From Candidatus Omnitrophota bacterium (GTDB taxonomy: Bacteria > Omnitrophota > Gorgyraeia > Gygaellales > JAHJCI01): a stretch of DNA of 58,357 nt. The position numbers and the translations under genes were made by a program. The notes under the pieces are model-generated. The model saw nothing but the letters and a program-made list of their open reading frames with translations. It did not search any database and was not told where the DNA came from. Position 1 is the first letter of the stretch; each line of letters opens with the position of its first letter. Positions 14,878-56,820 of this stretch are shown here, piece after piece. The stretch is from contig JBDRMR010000072.1 in NCBI GenBank assembly GCA_043812035.1, positions 1 through 58,357 on the forward strand, read 5' to 3'.

Positions 14878-15080
14878 GAAAAATCGCTTTCGCGAAGCTT
14901 CTGGCGATTTTTCTTGATCCTGAGGCCGATAGGACGAGATTCTTCGCGAAGTTTACCCTAGAGCGAAGCGAAGGGCTCAGAATCGTCATCGAGTCCTGAA
15001 CGACCCTTCGGCAGGCTCAGGGTCGTCCTGAGCGAAGCGAAGGACGAAGCGAAGGGCGAAGGATCTTCGGGGGGTCTGGC
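14878..15080. repeat. composite intergenic repeat block (AAATCGC hairpin plus GCGAAGG-word element)
   Basis: gaaaaatcgc...gcgatttttc hairpin at 14879-14914. acgagattcttc...tcctgagcgaagcgaaggacgaagcgaagg at 14935-15054 is shared with 48802-48876. Confidence 0.8.
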
Positions 15081-22698: not shown

Positions 22699-22744
22699 CT
22701 TTTTTAGTGTTTAGCGTATAGGAAATACTAAACGCTATGCGCTC
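22699..22744. repeat. TAGCGTA/AAACGCT word hairpin in the yajC-secDF spacer
   Basis: gtgtttagcgtataggaaatactaaacgctatgcgc. Same word family as 1586-1705 and 32854-32892. Confidence 0.6.
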
Positions 22745-23020
22745 TTAGGATTTCTTCAAATAAGCAATGCAGTTCTTATCCAGCTCGACCTTTACGTTGT
22801 CGTCTATACGCAAAATTACCGTCTTGTCTTTAACGTTAATAATCTTGCCGTGAACGCCCCCCGTGGTTACGACCTCGTCGTTTTTTTCCACGTTTTGAAT
22901 CATTTTCTGATGCTCTTTCTGGCTCAATCTCTGCGGCCTGATAAGCAAGAAATAGAAAATGACAAAAATAATAATCAGAGGCAATAAATTAACTAAAGGA
23001 TTAACGGCGGCGGATTCCAT
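22745..23020 (-). CDS. yajC: preprotein translocase subunit YajC
   Basis: ATG at 23020 (the ORF track starts at an upstream TTG). MESAAVNPLVNLLPLIIIFVIFYFLLIRPQ...VVTTGGVHGKI. Confidence 0.9.
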   Translation of the reverse strand: MESAAVNPLVNLLPLIIIFVIFYFLLIRPQRLSQKEHQKMIQNVEKNDEVVTTGGVHGKIINVKDKTVILRIDDNVKVELDKNCIAYLKKS

Positions 23021-23026
23021 AATCAA

Positions 23027-23120
23027 CTCCCTTCTTCAATGAGCCCACAACTTACGGAGTCCAAAGGACGACGTAAGTTGTTTGGGCGAATTGAACCCTT
23101 GACATCGTAGATGTCAAGGG
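23027..23120 (-). promoter_or_regulatory. leader cassette copy A (rearranged): TTGACA hairpin, then P1/P3 long hairpin, then the SD of yajC
   Basis: Minus-sense CCCTTGACATCTACGATGTCAAGGG, TTCAAT-TC-GCCC-AA-ACAACTTACG-TC-GTCC-TTT-GGAC-TC-CGTAAGTTGT-GGGC-TC-ATTGAA, then GAAGGGAG. Homologous to copies B-D. Confidence 0.75.
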
Positions 23121-23125
23121 TAAAC

Positions 23126-23404
23126 TCAGCCAGACGACTTAGCTTCACTCTCGTTCGCTAAGTCGTGGCTTCGTTTAACCAAACCGCTTACGGTTTCGGA
23201 CATCTGAGCGCCGCAGGACAGCCAGTAATTAAGTCTTTGCGTGTTTATCTTAATTACCGCCGGCTCTTTGGTGGGGTCGTAATAGCCCAACTCTTCGATA
23301 GAACGGCTGTCTCGCGACTTTCTTTTGTCAAAAACGCTGATGCGGAAAAAGTATCTCTTTTTAGAGCTTTTGCCTATCTTTCTTAATCTTATACGCACTG
23401 ACAT
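23126..23404 (-). CDS. rpsP: 30S ribosomal protein S16
   Basis: 92 aa. MSVRIRLRKIGKSSKKRYFFRISVFDKRKSRDSRSIEELGYYDP. The last ~14 codons coincide with hairpin module Y (23129-23168). Confidence 0.95.
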   Translation of the reverse strand: MSVRIRLRKIGKSSKKRYFFRISVFDKRKSRDSRSIEELGYYDPTKEPAVIKINTQRLNYWLSCGAQMSETVSGLVKRSHDLANESEAKSSG

Positions 23405-32853: not shown

Positions 32854-32892
32854 TATACGCTATCTATACGCTATACGCTAAACGCTATACGC
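32854..32892. repeat. TATACGC word array at the folP 3' end
   Basis: tatacgctatctatacgctatacgctaaacgctatacgc. The last 4 folP codons and the stop lie inside it. Confidence 0.8.
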
Positions 32893-34053
32893 TTTTCTTA
32901 TTGCGTCGGCAATCTTTACCGCCTGCGCCGCAAATTTAACGTCATGAACCCTGACGATGCTAGCACCGTTCATCACGGCTATCGCAAGCGTTGCCAACGT
33001 TCCGCTTAACCTTTGCTGAGGTGGAAGATTTAAGAGCTTGCCGATGAACGATTTTCGCGAAGGCCCTACAAGAACCGGGCAACCCAGCACCTTCAGCTCT
33101 TTCAGACTGTTCAGAATCTCTAAGTTATGTTCTACGGTCTTGCCGAACCCGATCCCCGGATCCACGATGATTCTTTTCTTGTCTATTCCTGAATCCTGCG
33201 CCCTTTTTATCGCCGCAGCCAGGTACCCGATTATCTCGCCCATCAAAAATTCGTATCGCGGATTCTTCTGCATGCTCCTAGGCGTGCCTTTCATGTGCAT
33301 AACGATAACCCGCGCCCTGCTTTTGGCTAATACCTCAATCATGCGGCGATTTCTCAAGCCGGTAATATCGTTCACAATCGAAGCTCCCGAATCCAAAGCC
33401 TGTCTGGCAACTTCCGGCTTATACGTATCTACGGAAATAGGGACTTTAATTATTTTAGATAGTTTTTTTATGACCGGGGCCGTTCTCTTAATTTCTTCTT
33501 TTTCCGATACCGGCAAAGCGCTCGGCCGGCTTGATTCCCCTCCTATATCGATGATGTCCGCGCCTTGAGAAACCAGTTCCCGGGCATAATCAATTATCTG
33601 CCCGATGCTCGCGCCCCTTGTCAGCAAGCCGTCCCCGCTAAACGAGTCGGGCGTAAGATTTACGATACCCATTATCCGCGTTCTGGCGCTTTCCGGCAAT
33701 TGATAATTTTTTAACACCGAGGAGATTCTTCCGCAGAGCCCCTGCAGACCCCGGACTTGCGGCTGCTCGTCAAGCTTGTCCAACAGCCGCTCATACTGGC
33801 TGAGCGTGCCCATAACAAGACAATCGGTTAACCGGGATTTTCCGTTAAGCGTGCCCCGGCTTAAACAAACTTCCCCCCCGATAGAAAGCATCTCCTGTTT
33901 TAAGATGTTTGCGCTGAAGCAATCCAGGTTATTCAGTCTAATCAGGCGCAATATACCTTTCGGAGCCATTATTTCTATTCCCCGCTTATCCGCGCCGATC
34001 TTCCTCATTATCTTCTGAATCTGCTCAATGTCGTCGGTATTGATAATCCGCAT
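32878..34053 (-). CDS. folP: dihydropteroate synthase with ~120 aa N-terminal extension
   Basis: 391 aa. Core IMGIVNLTPDSFSGDG, DIGGESSRP. The N-terminal domain is of unknown function. Confidence 0.85.
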   Translation of the reverse strand: MRIINTDDIEQIQKIMRKIGADKRGIEIMAPKGILRLIRLNNLDCFSANILKQEMLSIGGEVCLSRGTLNGKSRLTDCLVMGTLSQYERLLDKLDEQPQVRGLQGLCGRISSVLKNYQLPESARTRIMGIVNLTPDSFSGDGLLTRGASIGQIIDYARELVSQGADIIDIGGESSRPSALPVSEKEEIKRTAPVIKKLSKIIKVPISVDTYKPEVARQALDSGASIVNDITGLRNRRMIEVLAKSRARVIVMHMKGTPRSMQKNPRYEFLMGEIIGYLAAAIKRAQDSGIDKKRIIVDPGIGFGKTVEHNLEILNSLKELKVLGCPVLVGPSRKSFIGKLLNLPPQQRLSGTLATLAIAVMNGASIVRVHDVKFAAQAVKIADAIRKAYSV

Positions 34054-48776: not shown

Positions 48777-48801
48777 TTTAAATGAGCACGCAACTTATGG
48801 A

Positions 48802-48922
48802 ACGAGATTCTTCACTTTGTCCTTCGTCACTTCGTTCCTCAGGACAATCCTGAGCGAAGCGAAGGACGAAGCGAAGGACGAAGCGAAGGGTCTCTCTCAC
48901 CTCCGTTGGAGGTGAGACCTCC
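48802..48922. repeat. GCGAAGG-word element (second copy, one extra 12-nt unit) plus a 10-bp hairpin
   Basis: acgagattcttc...tcctgagcgaagcgaaggacgaagcgaagg(acgaagcgaagg)g, then tctcacctcc-gttg-gaggtgaga. Confidence 0.85.
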
Positions 48923-52250: not shown

Positions 52251-52426
52251 TGTTTTCTCACCTCCTTCAATGAGCAGGCGATTTATGGAGCACGCAGTGC
52301 GACATAAATCGTAGGCATTGACATCTTTGATGTCAATGCCGCCTGCGAATTGAACCCAGCACTTATTTGCTGATTTAAGATACGGTTCAAATAAGTGCTG
52401 GACCAAATTCAGCCACGGCCTTCGGC
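52251..52426 (-). promoter_or_regulatory. leader cassette copy B (core 52261-52354) with upstream 14-bp hairpin X (52355-52401)
   Basis: Minus-sense TTCAAT-TC-GCAGG...GGCATTGACATC-AAA-GATGTCAATGCC...CGATTTATG-TC-GCAC-TGC-GTGC-TC-CATAAATCG-CCTGC-TC-ATTGAA-GGAGG. TTGACA, 17 nt, TACGAT is embedded. Confidence 0.8.
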
Positions 52427-52873
52427 CTATTTAGAAAGCCCTTTTTCCAGTTGGCCCAGGAAAAAGAGGATCGCTATCGCCAGAACAGCGGTGACTAAAC
52501 TGGCCAGGTAAAAACCGCAGCCTATGCCCATACCGATTCCCGCAACGAGCCAGAGACTGGCAGCTGTTGTTAAGCCTCTTACCGCTTCTCCTGAACGGAT
52601 TATTGCGCCTGCGCCGAGAAAACCGATTCCGGTAATTATCCCGGCGGCGATTCGTGCGGGGTCTAAAGTAGCTACGTCCTTATATATATCAAAAACATAT
52701 TGAGATGTCAACATTATAAGGCAGGAACCTAATGACACCAGGATATGCGTGCGCAAGCCGGCACTGCGTTTCTTAACCTCCCGCTCAAAGCCAATTAACC
52801 CGCCTAAGATTATCGCTAAAATCAAACGCCCAAAAATAGCCAAAGGAGCAATCATCTTCTCCACCTCCTTCAA
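52427..52873 (-). CDS. MgtC/SapB family membrane protein
   Basis: 148 aa. GFEREVKKRSAGLRTHILV, 4-5 TM helices. Confidence 0.85.
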   Translation of the reverse strand: MKEVEKMIAPLAIFGRLILAIILGGLIGFEREVKKRSAGLRTHILVSLGSCLIMLTSQYVFDIYKDVATLDPARIAAGIITGIGFLGAGAIIRSGEAVRGLTTAASLWLVAGIGMGIGCGFYLASLVTAVLAIAILFFLGQLEKGLSK

Positions 52874-52954
52874 TGAGCAGATAACTTATGGAGCGTAAGC
52901 GACATAAGTTATAGGCATTGACATCGTAGATGTCAATGCCGTCTGCGAATTGAA
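52864..52954 (-). promoter_or_regulatory. leader cassette copy C (91 nt, identical to copy D)
   Basis: Minus-sense TTCAAT-TC-GCAGA-C-GGCATTGACATC-TAC-GATGTCAATGCC-T-ATAACTTATG-TC-GC-TTAC-GC-TC-CATAAGTTAT-CTGC-TC-ATTGAA-GGAGG. TTGACA (52936-52931), 17 nt, TATAAC (52913-52908). Confidence 0.85.
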
Positions 52955-53934
52955 TATCCCAAACCCGCAACCATTGCCGCATTGTCGGTGCAAAATTCTT
53001 TCGGAGAAAAATAAACCCTTAAACGGTTAATACCCGCCTCATTCCCGAATTTCTCTCTGAGGCGACTATTTGCCGCAACGCCTCCCCCCACAACCAATTG
53101 GTCCGTCTTGTTTAACCTGCAAGCTAAAACGGATTTCCTGACGAGCGCATCAATGACTGCTTCCTGAAAAGAGGCAGCCACGTCTCGAATAACGGGCAGC
53201 GGGCAGCGGGAAGCGGAGAACGGAGAATGCTTCCCGCGCCCCGTATCGCGTTTCCCGCCACCCGTTCCCCGAACATAATACAACACTGCCGTCTTTATCC
53301 CGCTAAAACTGAAGTCCAAAGGACGCTGGGTATTGCTGCATCTGAACTTTATACTCGCGGGATTTCCTTTTTTTGCAAACTTCTCAATAACCGGGCCGCC
53401 GGGAAAACTTAATCCTAAAATGCCGGCAACCTTGTCATATGCCTCTCCGCAGGCATCGTCCCGGGTCGAACCGAGGGGCTTGATTTTAGAGAATCTCTCA
53501 ACGTAAAACAAACTCGTATGCCCTCCGGAAACTACCAGGCCGACAAAAGGAAAACGGGGTTTTTCTTTGTTGAAAAAGGCGGAATAGAGATGGGCGTGCA
53601 GGTGATTTATCTTAACCAAGGGTAAATCCCGCGCGAAGCTCAAAGCCCTGGCGAAACAAATACCGACAAGCAAAGAGCCGTGCAAACCGGGTTGCTCTGT
53701 TACCGCAATCAGCTTTATATTATTTAACTTTGTTCCAGCCTGCTCTAAACTGTCGGCAAAGACGGCGCTTATCGTTTCCGAATGCCTGCGAGAGGCTATT
53801 TCCGGGACTATGCCTCTGTAGCGCCTGTGAAAATTCAAGCTTGATGAAACAATGTTAGAATAAACCTTTTGACCGTTCTCAACTACGGAGACCGCCGTCT
53901 CGTCGCATGAAGTCTCTATGCCTAACACCAACAT
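52933..53934 (-). CDS. tsaD: tRNA N6-adenosine threonylcarbamoyltransferase
   Basis: 333 aa. MLVLGIETSCDETAVSVV, VVSGGHTSL, VVGGGVAANS. Its stop TGA lies inside the TTGACA of cassette C. Confidence 0.9.
   Translation of the reverse strand: MLVLGIETSCDETAVSVVENGQKVYSNIVSSSLNFHRRYRGIVPEIASRRHSETISAVFADSLEQAGTKLNNIKLIAVTEQPGLHGSLLVGICFARALSFARDLPLVKINHLHAHLYSAFFNKEKPRFPFVGLVVSGGHTSLFYVERFSKIKPLGSTRDDACGEAYDKVAGILGLSFPGGPVIEKFAKKGNPASIKFRCSNTQRPLDFSFSGIKTAVLYYVRGTGGGKRDTGRGKHSPFSASRCPLPVIRDVAASFQEAVIDALVRKSVLACRLNKTDQLVVGGGVAANSRLREKFGNEAGINRLRVYFSPKEFCTDNAAMVAGLGYSIRRRH
53191..53267. repeat. imperfect GC-rich hairpin (CGGGCAG/CGGAGAA words) inside tsaD
   Basis: gggaagc...gcttccc 7-bp core. Outer aacgggcagcggg / cccgccacccgtt arms have two C-A mismatches on the plus strand, which are G-U pairs in mRNA sense. 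Encodes GTGGGKRDTGRGKHSPFSASRCPLPV. Confidence 0.7.
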
Positions 53935-55211
53935 TATTTACTCTTATATATCTTGATAGCCTTTAATACGTCCACTGCCCGCATCAATTGGTTATCGGTC
54001 AGGTATTTCCCGGGAACTTCCTTCGCCTGCTCTTGCTTTCCTTCGCTCTCCTCTAATCCTTGAAAAATATCGGCTATGGATTTCTCCTCTTGTTCGGCCA
54101 GCTCGATCTTGCCTTCTTCTACGATTATGTCGGGATTAACGCCCTGACCGTGGATTACCCGCCCGTTCGGGCTAAAATACTTACTGGTGGTCAATCTAAT
54201 CGCGGAGCCGTCGTTTAAAGGGATGACGGTTTGAACCGAGCCCTTTCCGAAGGTCTTGGTGCCCAATATAATTGCCCGCTTATAATCCTGCAATGCCGCA
54301 GCTACGATTTCGCTTCCCGACGCAGACCCGTTGTTTACCAAAATCACCAAAGGCAGGCTTAAATCCGGCTCCCTGCTCTTAGAATCGAATTCCATGTTTT
54401 GATTTTCTTTCCTTCCCCGGGTGGAGACTATAAGCTGGCCTTTTTCCACAAAGTTCTCCGTAATCTTAACTGCGGCGTCAAGCAACCCTCCCGGATTATT
54501 CCTTAAATCGAGAATCAGCGCATCCATGCCTTGCGATTTTAATTTTTGCACCGCCTTGCCGAATTCATCCGGCGTATTTTGACGAAATTCAACGAGGCGG
54601 ATATAACCTATGCCCTCATCCAATATCTGCGCCTCTTTTATATCCTTTATCTTTATAATTTCCCGGATAATCTTAAATTCCAGAAGCTTATCTTTTCCCT
54701 CTCTCAGCACGGTTATGCTTACCTGTGAACCGGGCTTGCCCCGCAGCTTCTTTACGGCTTCGAGCAGGTTAATATCTCGGGTAAGTTCTCCGTCGATTTT
54801 TACGATATGGTCTCCTGCCTTTATCCCCGCCTGCCAAGCGGGAGTATCCTCAATCGGCGTCACCACGGTAAGTAGTCCGTCCTTGAGGGTTATCTCGATT
54901 CCCAAGCCGCCGAATTCTCCGGTAGTATCTACCTTCAACTCATTGTATGTATCCGGGTCCATAAATTGGCTGTGTGGGTCCAGAGAGTCGAGCATCCCTG
55001 TGAGCGCTCCGTAAACCAGCTCTTTGGAATCGACCTCTTCAACGTAGTCGTTTTTTATGATTGCGAAGCCGTCGGAAAATAAATTTATATTTCTATATAA
55101 ATCGTCCTTCTTCTCTGCTTGCTTCTCCTGGGAAATCGCGATTGAGCCGATAACCACAGCCGCGGCTAAAACTGAAATCAACATCGAAAATTTTAATATC
55201 TTTCTTCGCAT
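53934..55211 (-). CDS. ctpA: carboxy-terminal processing protease (S41) with PDZ domain
   Basis: Start set at ATG 55211 (MRRKILKF...). The ORF-track TTG start lies in the cassette SD. GSASGSEIVAAAL, KTFGKGSVQ. Confidence 0.9.
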   Translation of the reverse strand: MRRKILKFSMLISVLAAAVVIGSIAISQEKQAEKKDDLYRNINLFSDGFAIIKNDYVEEVDSKELVYGALTGMLDSLDPHSQFMDPDTYNELKVDTTGEFGGLGIEITLKDGLLTVVTPIEDTPAWQAGIKAGDHIVKIDGELTRDINLLEAVKKLRGKPGSQVSITVLREGKDKLLEFKIIREIIKIKDIKEAQILDEGIGYIRLVEFRQNTPDEFGKAVQKLKSQGMDALILDLRNNPGGLLDAAVKITENFVEKGQLIVSTRGRKENQNMEFDSKSREPDLSLPLVILVNNGSASGSEIVAAALQDYKRAIILGTKTFGKGSVQTVIPLNDGSAIRLTTSKYFSPNGRVIHGQGVNPDIIVEEGKIELAEQEEKSIADIFQGLEESEGKQEQAKEVPGKYLTDNQLMRAVDVLKAIKIYKSK

Positions 55212-55395
55212 AACCGTTTCCTCCTTCAATGAGCAGATAACTTATGGAGCGTAAGCGACATAAGTTATAGGCATTGACATCGTAGATGTCAATGCCGTCT
55301 GCGAATTGAACCCTTGACATTTTGTTACTACAAAATGTCAAGGGTCAAATTCAGACATAGAACTTAGCTTCGCTATCGCTCGCTAAGTTCTGTCT
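55212..55395 (-). promoter_or_regulatory. leader cassette copy D: core 55220-55310, hairpin X 55311-55344, hairpin Y 55354-55394
   Basis: The core is 100% identical to 52864-52954. X is CCCTTGACATTTTG-TAGTAAC-CAAAATGTCAAGGG. Y is GACAGAACTTAGC-GAGCGATAGCGAA-GCTAAGTTCTATGTC and starts 1 nt after the gatB stop. Confidence 0.85.
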
Positions 55396-56820
55396 TCATT
55401 TGATTAATCTCTTCTTCAATATCTCCAATACCGCCTTGGGATTAGCCTTGCCTTTGGACTTTCGCATAACCTGACCGACTAAATACTGAACGGCGTTCTC
55501 TTTGCCGCCTAAATAATCGTTAGCCGAATCCGGGTTTTCCCGTATGGACTCTTCTATAATTTTATCCAGGGCTTCTCCGGCGGAAATCTGGATTAAATTC
55601 TTCCTCTCGACAATTATCTCAGGAGCCTCGCCGGTTTCGATCATCTCGGTTAAAACACCCTTGGCTGCGATATTGGAAATCTTGCCCTCCCTGGATAACT
55701 TAATCAGGCTTGATAGATTCTCCGGCATAAGGTTCAAATCGGCAATGCTCAGTTTGCGGTTATTTAGTTCGGAAAGCAAAGGGCCGCTAATCCAGTTGAC
55801 AATCATTTTTGCCTCAGGATAAAATTTAAAACAATCTTCGAAAAATTCGGCAAGCTCTTTCTCCGAAGTTAAAATACGCGTATCGTATTCCGAAAGCCGG
55901 TAATCCCGCATAAAACGCTCCTCTTTTTGCCGGGGTAATTCAGGCAAGGACTTTTCTATCTCCTGTCGCATCCTTGAATCGATAACAAAAGGAGGCAGGT
56001 CCGGCTCGGGGAAATAGCGATAATCCTGGGCTTCCTCCTTTGTGCGCATTGGGCAAGTTCTTTGGCCCTGGACATCCCACAATCGCGTTTCCTGAATTAC
56101 CTTGCCCCCGCTCTGCAGTAATTTTGTCTGACGTTTTAATTCAAATTCCAGAGCGTCGCGAACCCCCCTAAAAGAATTCATATTCTTCAACTCTGTCTTG
56201 ATCCCTAAAACAAGTTCGTCTTTTTTCTTAACTGATATATTGGCATCGCACCTCAAAATTCCCTTTTCCATATCGCAACTTGAAATCCCCAGATACCGGA
56301 TGGTTTGTTTTAAGGTTACTAAATACTCGTAAGCCTCCTGCGGCGAATTAATGTCCGGACAGCTCACTATCTCAAGGAGCGGTATGCCGGTCCGGTTAAA
56401 ATCAACTAAACTTACGTCTTCTTCATGAATCAATTTCCCCGCGTCCTCTTCCAGATGCACCCGTTTAATGCCGATACGCTTCTGTCCGCCGTTTAAGCCC
56501 ATGTTCAAAAACCCGTCCTGGCCTATAGGTAAATCGTACTGGGAAATCTGATAATTCTTTGGTAAATCTGGATAAAAATAGTTCTTGCGGTCGAATTTAG
56601 TGAATTCGGCAACCCGGCAGTTCAGCGCAATCGCCACTTTTACGGCGTATTCAAAAGCCTTTTGGTTAAACACCGGCAGACACCCCGGCAGGCCCAAACA
56701 AACCGGGCAAACCTGAGAATTCGGCTGGCTGCCGAATTCGGTCGAGCATCCGCAAAATATCTTGGTGTCTGTTTTTAGCTGAACGTGAACCTCTAATCCG
56801 ATTACTGCCTCATATTCCAT
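55396..56820 (-). CDS. gatB: Asp/Glu-tRNA amidotransferase subunit B
   Basis: 474 aa. MEYEAVIGLEVHVQLKTDTKIFC. Confidence 0.97.
   Translation of the reverse strand: MEYEAVIGLEVHVQLKTDTKIFCGCSTEFGSQPNSQVCPVCLGLPGCLPVFNQKAFEYAVKVAIALNCRVAEFTKFDRKNYFYPDLPKNYQISQYDLPIGQDGFLNMGLNGGQKRIGIKRVHLEEDAGKLIHEEDVSLVDFNRTGIPLLEIVSCPDINSPQEAYEYLVTLKQTIRYLGISSCDMEKGILRCDANISVKKKDELVLGIKTELKNMNSFRGVRDALEFELKRQTKLLQSGGKVIQETRLWDVQGQRTCPMRTKEEAQDYRYFPEPDLPPFVIDSRMRQEIEKSLPELPRQKEERFMRDYRLSEYDTRILTSEKELAEFFEDCFKFYPEAKMIVNWISGPLLSELNNRKLSIADLNLMPENLSSLIKLSREGKISNIAAKGVLTEMIETGEAPEIIVERKNLIQISAGEALDKIIEESIRENPDSANDYLGGKENAVQYLVGQVMRKSKGKANPKAVLEILKKRLIK

Follow-up and report, generated by a model that had tools for sequence, protein, structure and literature searches.

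A mosaic family of hairpin-forming repeats occupies gene boundaries in Omnitrophota and may act as transcribed punctuation between cistrons

The spacer between rpsP (ribosomal protein S16) and yajC in a Candidatus Omnitrophota bacterium carries a cassette of three hairpins, found in a stretch of 58,357 nucleotides (GenBank assembly GCA_043812035.1, contig JBDRMR010000072.1, positions 1 to 58,357; hereafter the window). The cassette belongs to a mosaic repeat family that resembles repetitive extragenic palindromic (REP) sequences and miniature inverted-repeat transposable elements (MITEs). The family is a conserved element folded as a single strand, with a strict polarity at gene boundaries, a fixed geometry with respect to stop and start codons, and an old occupancy of its sites combined with concerted turnover. 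Its assembly is mosaic: an inverted copy lies on the upstream stop codon and is followed by a variable, GC-clamped hairpin (X) and then by a sense copy that touches the Shine-Dalgarno (SD) sequence or the AUG of the next gene. Judging from these sequences, we consider the chances about even that the elements, once transcribed, punctuate the cistrons of polycistronic messages.

On the minus strand, open reading frame (ORF) calls and Pfam give the gene order trpE, rpsP, yajC and a fused secDF, with a 105-nt spacer between rpsP and yajC. The features of the locus are, in the direction of transcription:

23126..23404, minus strand: rpsP (ribosomal protein S16), 92 aa, an ORF of which Pfam Ribosomal_S16 covers residues 14-69 only
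23126..23173, minus strand: C-terminal tail of S16, RSHDLANESEAKSSG, with its TGA stop, coded wholly inside the inverted hairpin
23120..23178, plus strand: inverted gene-end hairpin (hairpin Y plus linker), covariance-model search 51.8 bits, E 1.2e-10
23096..23120, minus strand: X hairpin CCCTTGACATCTACGATGTCAAGGG, with a 19-nt core that is also that of the P2 arm in copies C and D (listed further below)
23035..23095, minus strand: gene-start hairpin in its canonical short form (copy E, the yajC copy), 73 bits, E 2.8e-16
23027..23034, minus strand: SD of yajC, GAAGGGAG, directly abutting the hairpin and the same in element-free relatives
22745..23020, minus strand: yajC, 91 aa, ATG at 23020 (ORF call, Pfam)

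The gene-start hairpin of yajC consists, in order, of helix P1a, a UC/UC loop, helix P1b, a bulge, helix P3, a second UC/UC loop and an apex (TTCAAT-TC-GCCC..ACTTACG-TC-GTCC TTT GGAC-TC-CGTAAGT..GGGC-TC-ATTGAA, minus strand), and six nucleotides separate the SD from the yajC ATG. The rpsP stop codon is carried in the linker GGCTGAGTTTA between Y and X. The 149-nt segment 23024-23172 folds as three hairpins with a free energy of -71.1 kcal/mol (z = -8.9 against shuffles).

A preliminary description of this DNA, made from its letters, had reported most of these parts, and all the sequences that it named were found in their places, far above chance. It had rightly seen that the TTGACA hairpin X is the same module as the P2 arm of other copies, here placed outside the closing helix; the core TTGACATCTACGATGTCAA is exact at 23099-23117, 52918-52936 and 55274-55292 and has two mismatches at 52318-52336, with 0.01 occurrences expected by chance. 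Its long P1/P3 hairpin at 23035-23095, with two TC/TC internal loops followed by GAAGGGAG and the yajC ATG, was recovered as drawn, and the modular nature of the element stands. The homology that it proposed between Y at 23129-23168 and a hairpin after gatB at 55354-55394 is borne out by 78% identity over 55 nt and by three stem pairs with compensatory differences between the two copies; the pattern CTTAGCGANCGANAGNGAAGCTAAG matches only these two Y sites in the window, with 0 expected. Y is nevertheless not the separate module it was taken for, since a model of the gene-start hairpin finds both sites on the plus strand (51.8 and 55 bits, E about 1e-10): Y is the same hairpin, inverted. The linker, likewise held to be a conserved piece of its own, is the basal helix and internal loop of the inverted copy (CTGARTTT). 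It had been claimed for copies A, B and D; it is present in B, D and the yajC copy and lacking from the copy at 48.8 kb (A), and the longer pattern GKCTGARTTTR occurs at three loci (23121, 52404 and 55346; 0.25 expected).

To define the family, the pattern TCCRTAARTN5GCTCATTKAA, taken from the 3' half of five copies, was searched for in bacterial and archaeal genomes, one per species, and matched at least 117 stretches. The matches listed include about 80 species-level assemblies, and all of them except three obvious chance matches lie in Omnitrophota metagenome-assembled genomes or in PVC/'Planctomycetia' bins, the latter showing the same element architecture; the repeat is thus not confined to this genome and is spread over Omnitrophota. 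The upstream partner strand, (A/T)(T/A)(C/A)AATTCGC, is almost always present, although the pattern leaves it unconstrained. The unit measures about 58 nt (56-62 nt). At its base is a helix of 6 bp (TTMAAT/ATTKAA), above which lie an invariant internal loop (2x2, UC/UC), a helix of 4 bp and a bulge of 1-2 nt; a helix of 10 bp (..ACTTAYG/CRTAAGT..), a second loop (UY/UC) and an apex that varies complete the unit, and the P2 arm is sometimes inserted. P2 is absent in 50 of 109 copies, which makes the short form the commonest across the phylum; the yajC copy, presented in the preliminary description as a rearranged fourth cassette, is therefore canonical, and P2 is an insert that copies may lack.

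Alignment of 49 distinct short-form copies (alignment A2, with the yajC copy and copies from about 45 other genomes) gave a single hairpin: P1a of 6 bp, UC/UC, P1b of 4 bp, a bulge of 1-2 nt, P3 of 10 bp, UY/UC and the apex. In this fold 88.9% of the cells are paired, compared with 22-43% when the strands are slid as controls, the 3' strand being partly fixed by the search pattern. Ten pairs have changes on both sides (144 cells), a result reached by 0 of 500 shuffles; because a few subfamilies recur among the variable stems, the cells overcount independent events. RNAalifold arrived independently at the same fold. A covariance model (R1) was built from A2, and the 73 bits of the yajC copy are high partly by construction, as this copy is one of the 49 model rows.

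The model matches divide into two types. Type A ends in GCTCATTKAA and comprises 125 copies, 96 of which have a gene start at -1..+22 nt; type B ends in TCACTTAT, TCATTTGA or TCGTTTAA and comprises 48 copies, 33 of them at the end of an ORF on the opposite strand. Some type A sequences also stand in the gene-end position, one of them directly after a tRNA cluster, and the heads of the units read TTMAATTCGC or GTAAGTTC. Inverted copies keep their UC/UC loops on their own strand, and the mRNA strand there shows GA/GA. The X arms vary as well: the variant AATAATGATTCCGAAAGTGCCTGCTAGGCCGCAGCCATTTCGGA is kept in L006, L012, L043, L078 and L116, upstream of gene-start hairpins of different genes, and from this recurrence across genomes it follows that X arms, too, come in recurrent families, namely the TTGACA, CCCCACACC and CCCGCC types. 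In Rfam 15, searched at the gathering score and with E up to 10, no family matches the elements, only the two tRNAs of the window reach gathering, and no credible sub-threshold match falls on the elements of the window. Within the library of papers searched, nothing relevant turned up on RNA motifs or repeats of Omnitrophota, literal sequence strings included.

The polarity of the family was examined in 192 model matches within about 0.9 Mb of loci, which were chosen for containing a match; we estimate the unbiased density at roughly one element per 8-13 kb. Among adjacent pairs, 41 of 46 stand head-to-head and none tail-to-tail. A gene start lies at most 30 nt from the 3' end of the element for 113 sense copies versus 14 antisense copies, and a gene end falls at the element edge for 41 antisense versus 9 sense copies. 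At mixed-strand loci, the orientation of type A tracks the adjacent gene and not the majority strand. In type B the upstream stop codon recurs at fixed positions: TAA at nt 2-4 (16 copies), TGA at nt 6-8 (four, gatB of the window among them) or TGA at nt 51-53 (three, including S16), and about a quarter of the gene-end copies add codons to the ORF.

The distance from hairpin to start codon is bimodal, with offsets of 9-14 nt and of -2..+4 nt. Where the start lies at 6 nt or more, an SD follows the hairpin directly in 72 of 75 cases; where it lies at -2..+4 nt, 37 of 38 starts have no SD, and this class makes up one third of the 113 associated starts. Judged from the N-termini, the SD-less starts include those of infA, rplK, rplJ, rpsG, rplC, rpsS and rpmC, as well as rpmI, rplT, tig, smpB, rpoC and serS. 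With [A] and [B] for the two types, a str/S10-like operon reads rpsL-[A]-rpsG-[B]-fusA-[B][A]-tuf-rpsJ-[B][A]-rplC and an rplKAJL-rpoBC-like operon reads nusG-[B][A]-rplK-rplA-[A]-rplJ-rplL-rpoB-[B][A]-rpoC; elements also lie within an apparent rnf operon.

At the rpsP end of the cassette, the inverted copy has become coding sequence. The preliminary description had noted that Y is read in frame as the tail of S16 (...VKRSHDLANESEAKSSG*), and this was found to be so: the S16 frame reads through the inverted copy to the TGA of its basal loop (23128-23126, in the linker), so that the last 15 codons are the element and the protein gains a 15-residue lineage-specific tail. Of 40 S16 homologues compared, only the closest group has the tail, RSHDLA(N/S)xSEAKSSG; the remaining ones end right after LVK or have unrelated tails, often rich in K/E. 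A scan of metagenomes with the S16 alignment yielded only about nine close relatives. Tail and nucleotide hairpin occur together (P0002-P0009 and P0015; loci L121, L123, L124 and L136), the hairpin being present at every locus with the tail, and S16 proteins that are 77-87% identical and have unrelated tails come without the element (L125, L130, L132, L133). The DNA of the Y hairpin is nearly invariant in L121, L123 and L136, where only the apical loop shows substitutions; over the S16 bodies, by contrast, the difference is 13-24%. In relatives without the element, the yajC SD is retained, as GAAGGGAGCTGATTATG, inside the S16 tail, which places the cassette between ..GGTTTGGTTAA (S16 ..GLVK) and the SD.

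Comparison of junctions shows both retention and turnover. The gatB|ctpA junction is occupied in the window and in L034, at 49% protein identity and with a shared gatA-gatB-ctpA-tsaD synteny, and the tsaD|mgtC junction is occupied in the window and in L094, at 66% protein identity. The rho|rpmE junction is filled in four genomes (62-89% identity) and the junction upstream of rpsP in three (41-59% identity). The spacer between rpsP and yajC is variable. It is element-free in L125-127, L130 and L132, where a gap of 2 nt separates the genes, in L133, where the stop codon of rpsP and the ATG of yajC share one base, and in L134 and L135, with a spacer of about 35 nt. Y, X and a type A unit follow each other in the window and in L121, the A units belonging to different stem subfamilies. 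In L124, two identical sense units stand one after the other, the first of them fused to the 5' half of Y; a mosaic of 307 nt is found in L123 and L129; in L136, X is of another type and the A unit carries P2; and L131 retains only the first 18 nt of Y. Within the window, copies C and D show 100% identity across 91 nt, and since their junctions have been occupied since ancient times, this identity points to gene conversion or replacement. The single comparison of an empty with a filled site (L125/L130 versus the window) indicates that about 51 nt were replaced, with no target-site duplication readable. Head-to-head composites have outer ends, TTMAATGA...TCATTKAA, that resemble terminal inverted repeats (TIRs).

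Two further observations concern the surroundings of the copies. At L092:1-300, L101:650-914, L065:1-200, L040:1-180 and L040:5960-6290, a stretch of 12-36 nt immediately before the inverted element repeats the 5' part of a tRNA; in L092 the identical 36 nt begin a complete tRNA some 150 nt further downstream, and a complete tRNA-Pro comes after the element in L040. These fragments look like partial duplications made on arrival of the element. In addition, contigs end or are cut inside identical hairpin copies (L001, at its 3' end, L051, L073, L110 and L022/L067), and the repeats thus evidently break metagenome assemblies.

In the reading that we favour, the cassette would be transcribed within polycistronic mRNA and would fold into separate hairpins. 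The gene-end hairpin would end the upstream ORF through its built-in stops (TAA at nt 2-4, TGA at nt 6-8 or 51-53) and would protect the 3' side of the upstream RNA as a 3' barrier. The gene-start hairpin would lock away the upstream sequence and offer the SD or AUG at a fixed distance, as an insulator or start-site organiser, a role that would explain highly expressed genes starting 0-3 nt downstream of it without an SD; it may also mark a processing site or form a 5'-end barrier. The copies would have spread and been homogenised by recombination, gene conversion or some transposition activity.

Several points weigh against this reading. The stems are 97% Watson-Crick, and G.U and A.C pairs number 7 versus 7 in type A and 3 versus 8 in type B (model strand); with G.U and A.C at about equal frequency, the stems do not bear the mark that selection on one RNA strand usually leaves, and a hairpin of single-stranded DNA (ssDNA) is equally compatible with the data. 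A first count of 27 G.U versus 6 A.C was discarded, being inflated by positions fixed in the search pattern. Because the TC/TC loops are kept on the element strand in both orientations, gene-end copies show GA/GA in the mRNA, and such a conservation would fit strand-specific recognition at the DNA level better than a single RNA-binding factor. Presence/absence polymorphism, insertion at ORF ends and identical copies that break assemblies (L051, L073, L110; L001) are as in a selfish element. Moreover, part of the covariation reflects a few recurrent stem subfamilies and not many independent events, the sample is biased by a search pattern taken from gene-start copies, and the gene calls behind the boundary counts are crude ORF calls.

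The same points nourish the alternative that the family is a purely selfish, non-autonomous REPIN- or MITE-like element, the hairpin being the ssDNA substrate of a trans-acting HUH/Y1-type transposase, which we regard as a serious if rather unlikely account. Location at boundaries, stops and polarity would then follow from purifying selection in a compact genome, from insertion as a head-to-head unit and from a replication-strand bias. Presence/absence and module swapping among close relatives agree with such an origin, as do the identical copies within a genome with contigs ending at them, the duplicated tRNA 5' fragments beside some copies and the ORF tails made by insertion (S16, TsaD); so do the head-to-head doublets, which are REPIN-like (PMC3116915), the nearly all Watson-Crick stems with G.U about equal to A.C, and the loops kept on the element strand in either orientation. 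It is harder to reconcile with a core kept across about 80 species among the matches listed, with the same junctions being filled at 40-66% protein identity, and with the 113:14 ratio of sense to antisense copies at gene starts, which includes mixed-strand loci. The hairpin also abuts SD-less starts of very highly expressed genes, where an inert hairpin should be strongly deleterious. Finally, no transposase was seen in the 8-kb blocks around the matches, and no target-site duplication could be demonstrated.

A bolder reading, which we consider unlikely, makes the sense hairpin a general cis-acting signal for initiation or processing and the inverted hairpin the matching gene-end signal, in a hairpin code that marks cistron boundaries and that concerted evolution would maintain as a function of the Omnitrophota host and not of a parasite. 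Ribosomes would then begin, without an SD, at an AUG lying 0-3 nt beyond the hairpin, either by cleavage to a leaderless or nearly leaderless mRNA or by docking on the platform of the 30S subunit.

It is very unlikely that the cassette combines a terminator with a promoter, such that X or the inverted copy ends rpsP transcription and a TTGACA palindrome with a -10-like hexamer restarts it for yajC. Suitable hexamers can indeed be read in copy B (TTGACA-N17-TACGAT), in copies C and D (TTGACA-N17-TATAAC) and in copy E (TTGACA-N17-TCAATT), and in L109 an inverted copy directly follows a tRNA cluster. Promoter-like and terminator-like matches are, however, at chance level in both regions scanned; no X hairpin is accompanied by a T-run, and scans for intrinsic terminators (hairpin plus T-run) reported none of the X, Y or core hairpins. 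TTGACA occurs only in a subset of X and P2 arms and is lacking from the X hairpins of most genomes, compensatory changes in variable stems would be unexpected in a promoter, and elements lie inside the apparent str, S10 and rplKAJL-rpoBC operons.

A site on double-stranded DNA or a cruciform, bound by a nucleoid protein, topoisomerase or recombinase in the manner of the attC sites of integrons, is highly improbable. In its architecture (imperfect palindrome, small internal loops, bulge, variable apex) the element loosely recalls attC, but none of the GTTRRRY/RYYYAAC boxes that define attC is visible in the alignments, and the flanks are core genes in conserved synteny and not cassettes. The two arms are consistently asymmetric, with TC on the same strand in both, and this favours a folded single strand.

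We give slightly less credit still to a boxA-like site for Nus factors, which would recruit NusB-NusE for antitermination along very long co-directional arrays. The segment GCUCAUUUAA/GCUCAUUGAA resembles the rrn boxA, GCUCUUUAA, and nearly the whole window is co-directional (54 of its 60 ORF calls share a strand). In the conserved fold, however, this segment is paired, and its K position covaries from C-G to A-U; inverted copies exist as well, and known use of boxA is far sparser than the estimated density of about one element per 8-13 kb. A gene-specific cis-regulator of yajC-secDF or rpsP (riboswitch, ribosomal-protein leader or attenuator), suggested by a structured leader directly before the SD and by an extension of the X stem that can alternatively pair with P1a in the fold and so looks switch-like, is effectively refuted by the distribution: the downstream genes are unrelated (RACo, bactofilin, MgtC, CtpA and YajC and, from N-termini, EF-Tu, GroEL, L31 and SpoVG), close relatives lack the element at rpsP-yajC, and there is no Rfam family match.

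Some structural ideas were set aside as well. By eye, CUGAGUU does not agree with a catalytic core of CUGANGA, a helix and GAAA, and Rfam gave no match up to E 10 for self-cleaving ribozymes (hammerhead, twister, hatchet and others). A giant hairpin pairing Y with the core would join diverged subtypes that are about 60-65% identical by eye, and the minimum free energy fold has three local hairpins in its place; a tRNA-like cloverleaf, whose closing helix would pair the Y 5' end with the core 3' end, suffers from poor complementarity. Formation of copy E by simple deletion between TTGACAT repeats was rejected, since it would have removed the 5' strand of P1, which is present.

Over its whole length, the window holds seven full copies and one truncated copy, and besides the yajC copy four copies stand just 5' of start codons, on the same strand, at genes for RACo (truncated), a bactofilin-HTH protein, mgtC and a ctpA-like protease. 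The rows are:

48778..48801, minus strand: truncated copy (copy A), 3' half only (TCCATAAGTTGCGTGCTCATTTAA), abutting the ATG of the RACo gene
52266..52354, minus strand: copy B, gene-start hairpin with P2 insert, before the bactofilin-HTH gene (model match, fold)
52869..52954, minus strand: copy C, gene-start hairpin with P2 insert, before mgtC (model match)
55225..55310, minus strand: copy D, gene-start hairpin with P2 insert, before the ctpA-like S41 protease gene (model match, fold)
55311..55345, minus strand: X hairpin of copy D, ACCCTTGACATTTTGTAGTAACAAAATGTCAAGGG (fold)
55345..55403, plus strand: second inverted gene-end hairpin, 55 bits, E 1.6e-11

Copy B is preceded by an X hairpin (52356-52401) and by the remnant of an inverted copy, GGCTGAATTTG, at 52404-52414. 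The gatB stop TGA (55398-55396) lies at nt 6-8 of the second inverted hairpin, in mRNA sense. The tsaD TGA (52935-52933) lies inside the P2 arm of copy C, so the last codons of TsaD are encoded by the element; its end, ..YSIRRRH* (52933-52954, minus strand), is the second element-derived protein tail in the window.

Repeats of other kinds are also present. A repeat family unlike the present one, CTCAGGnnnATCCTGAGCGAAGCGAAGGACGAAGCGAAGG, with tandem GCGAAGG-like units and a long hairpin, occurs at 15016-15061 and 48838-48895, and at 48.8 kb it has taken the place of the 5' half of the gene-start hairpin. The yajC-secDF spacer (22700-22745) contains a palindrome, GTTTAGCGTATAGG..CTAAACGCTATGCGCTC, that was picked up as terminator-like and is related to short tandem and dispersed repeats of the type TATACGCTATACGCT / TTTAGCGGATAGCG, found at 1569-1702 and 32863-32893. 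Sub-threshold Rfam matches to microRNA precursors, on both strands at 53192-53272, mark a strong palindrome within the tsaD coding region; a sub-threshold match to Rickettsia sRNA47 on the plus strand at 54229-54347, antisense to the ctpA-like gene, is probably spurious (31 bits against a gathering score of 60, E 1.5e-5). The very long co-directional array of the window, on the minus strand, includes Wood-Ljungdahl genes (cdhD, RACo), gatA/gatB, his/trp genes and secDF.

Among the closest known systems are the REP elements, which have effects on mRNA 3' stability. REP, BIME and REPIN sequences are abundant short extragenic palindromes of Proteobacteria (PMC3116915, PMC3337134; bioRxiv 10.1101/2021.07.10.451892). 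As with these, the Omnitrophota element is a high-copy, extragenic, imperfect palindrome that forms mosaic clusters of alternating orientation and inverted doublets separated by spacers, and it is homogeneous within a genome yet persists vertically for long. It differs in its unit of about 58 nt with two conserved 2x2 loops (REP units measure 20-40 nt), in heads without a 5' GTAG in the alignments, in doublets whose members are diverged subtypes, each folding alone, unlike those of REPIN, and in its strict start/end polarity, abutment of SD or AUG and sequence core kept phylum-wide. With MITEs of the Correia, ERIC and RUP type it shares insertion polymorphism in close relatives and near-identical copies within a genome. 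The CREE/NEMIS elements of Neisseria are genus-specific, have 26-bp TIRs, a TA duplication and a site for IHF, and can create promoters; the hairpins formed in their transcripts can be cut by RNase III or can block it, and they alter the expression of adjacent genes (PMC2649163). Both are small inverted-repeat elements beside genes and vary in presence and absence (among strains, for CREE), but none of the 26-bp TIRs, TA duplication, IHF site or promoter creation was found for the Omnitrophota element, and CREE are not systematically in sense orientation before start codons.

Rickettsia palindromic elements (RPE), said to have been described by Ogata et al. in 2000, are reportedly palindromic repeats inserted in frame inside genes, to which they add peptide segments. 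The tails of S16 and TsaD are alike in that a palindromic repeat becomes coding sequence, although the place of the Omnitrophota element is at the end of the gene, for which it provides the stop codon. The pneumococcal BOX repeats (boxA-boxB-boxC) are hairpin-forming, intergenic, modular and species-restricted, with variable module content; the modularity and variable content are shared, while the sequence is unrelated and BOX lacks start/stop polarity. Intercistronic RNase III sites of phage T7 and chloroplast sites of the PPR10 type are conserved elements, structured or protein-bound, that fix the 3' end of the preceding RNA and the 5' end of the following one and set the context of translation initiation. 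Here the likeness is one of working only, with no relation in sequence, and processing in Omnitrophota is hypothetical. The hairpin family is best filed as a phylum-wide variant of the bacterial mosaic palindromic repeats, with an unusual gene-boundary polarity.

In Omnitrophota, a widespread, uncultivated phylum, this element may mark a substantial fraction of the gene boundaries; it touches the starts of genes for ribosomal proteins, RNA polymerase and translation factors. In practice, the repeats mislead ORF callers at starts and 3' ends, and they are a potential marker of the phylum. If the family is selfish, it would be an unusually old, sequence-conserved mobile repeat that remodels protein C-termini, as in S16 and TsaD. 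If the hairpins act in RNA, they would represent a phylum-specific organisation of polycistronic mRNA, possibly with SD-independent initiation.

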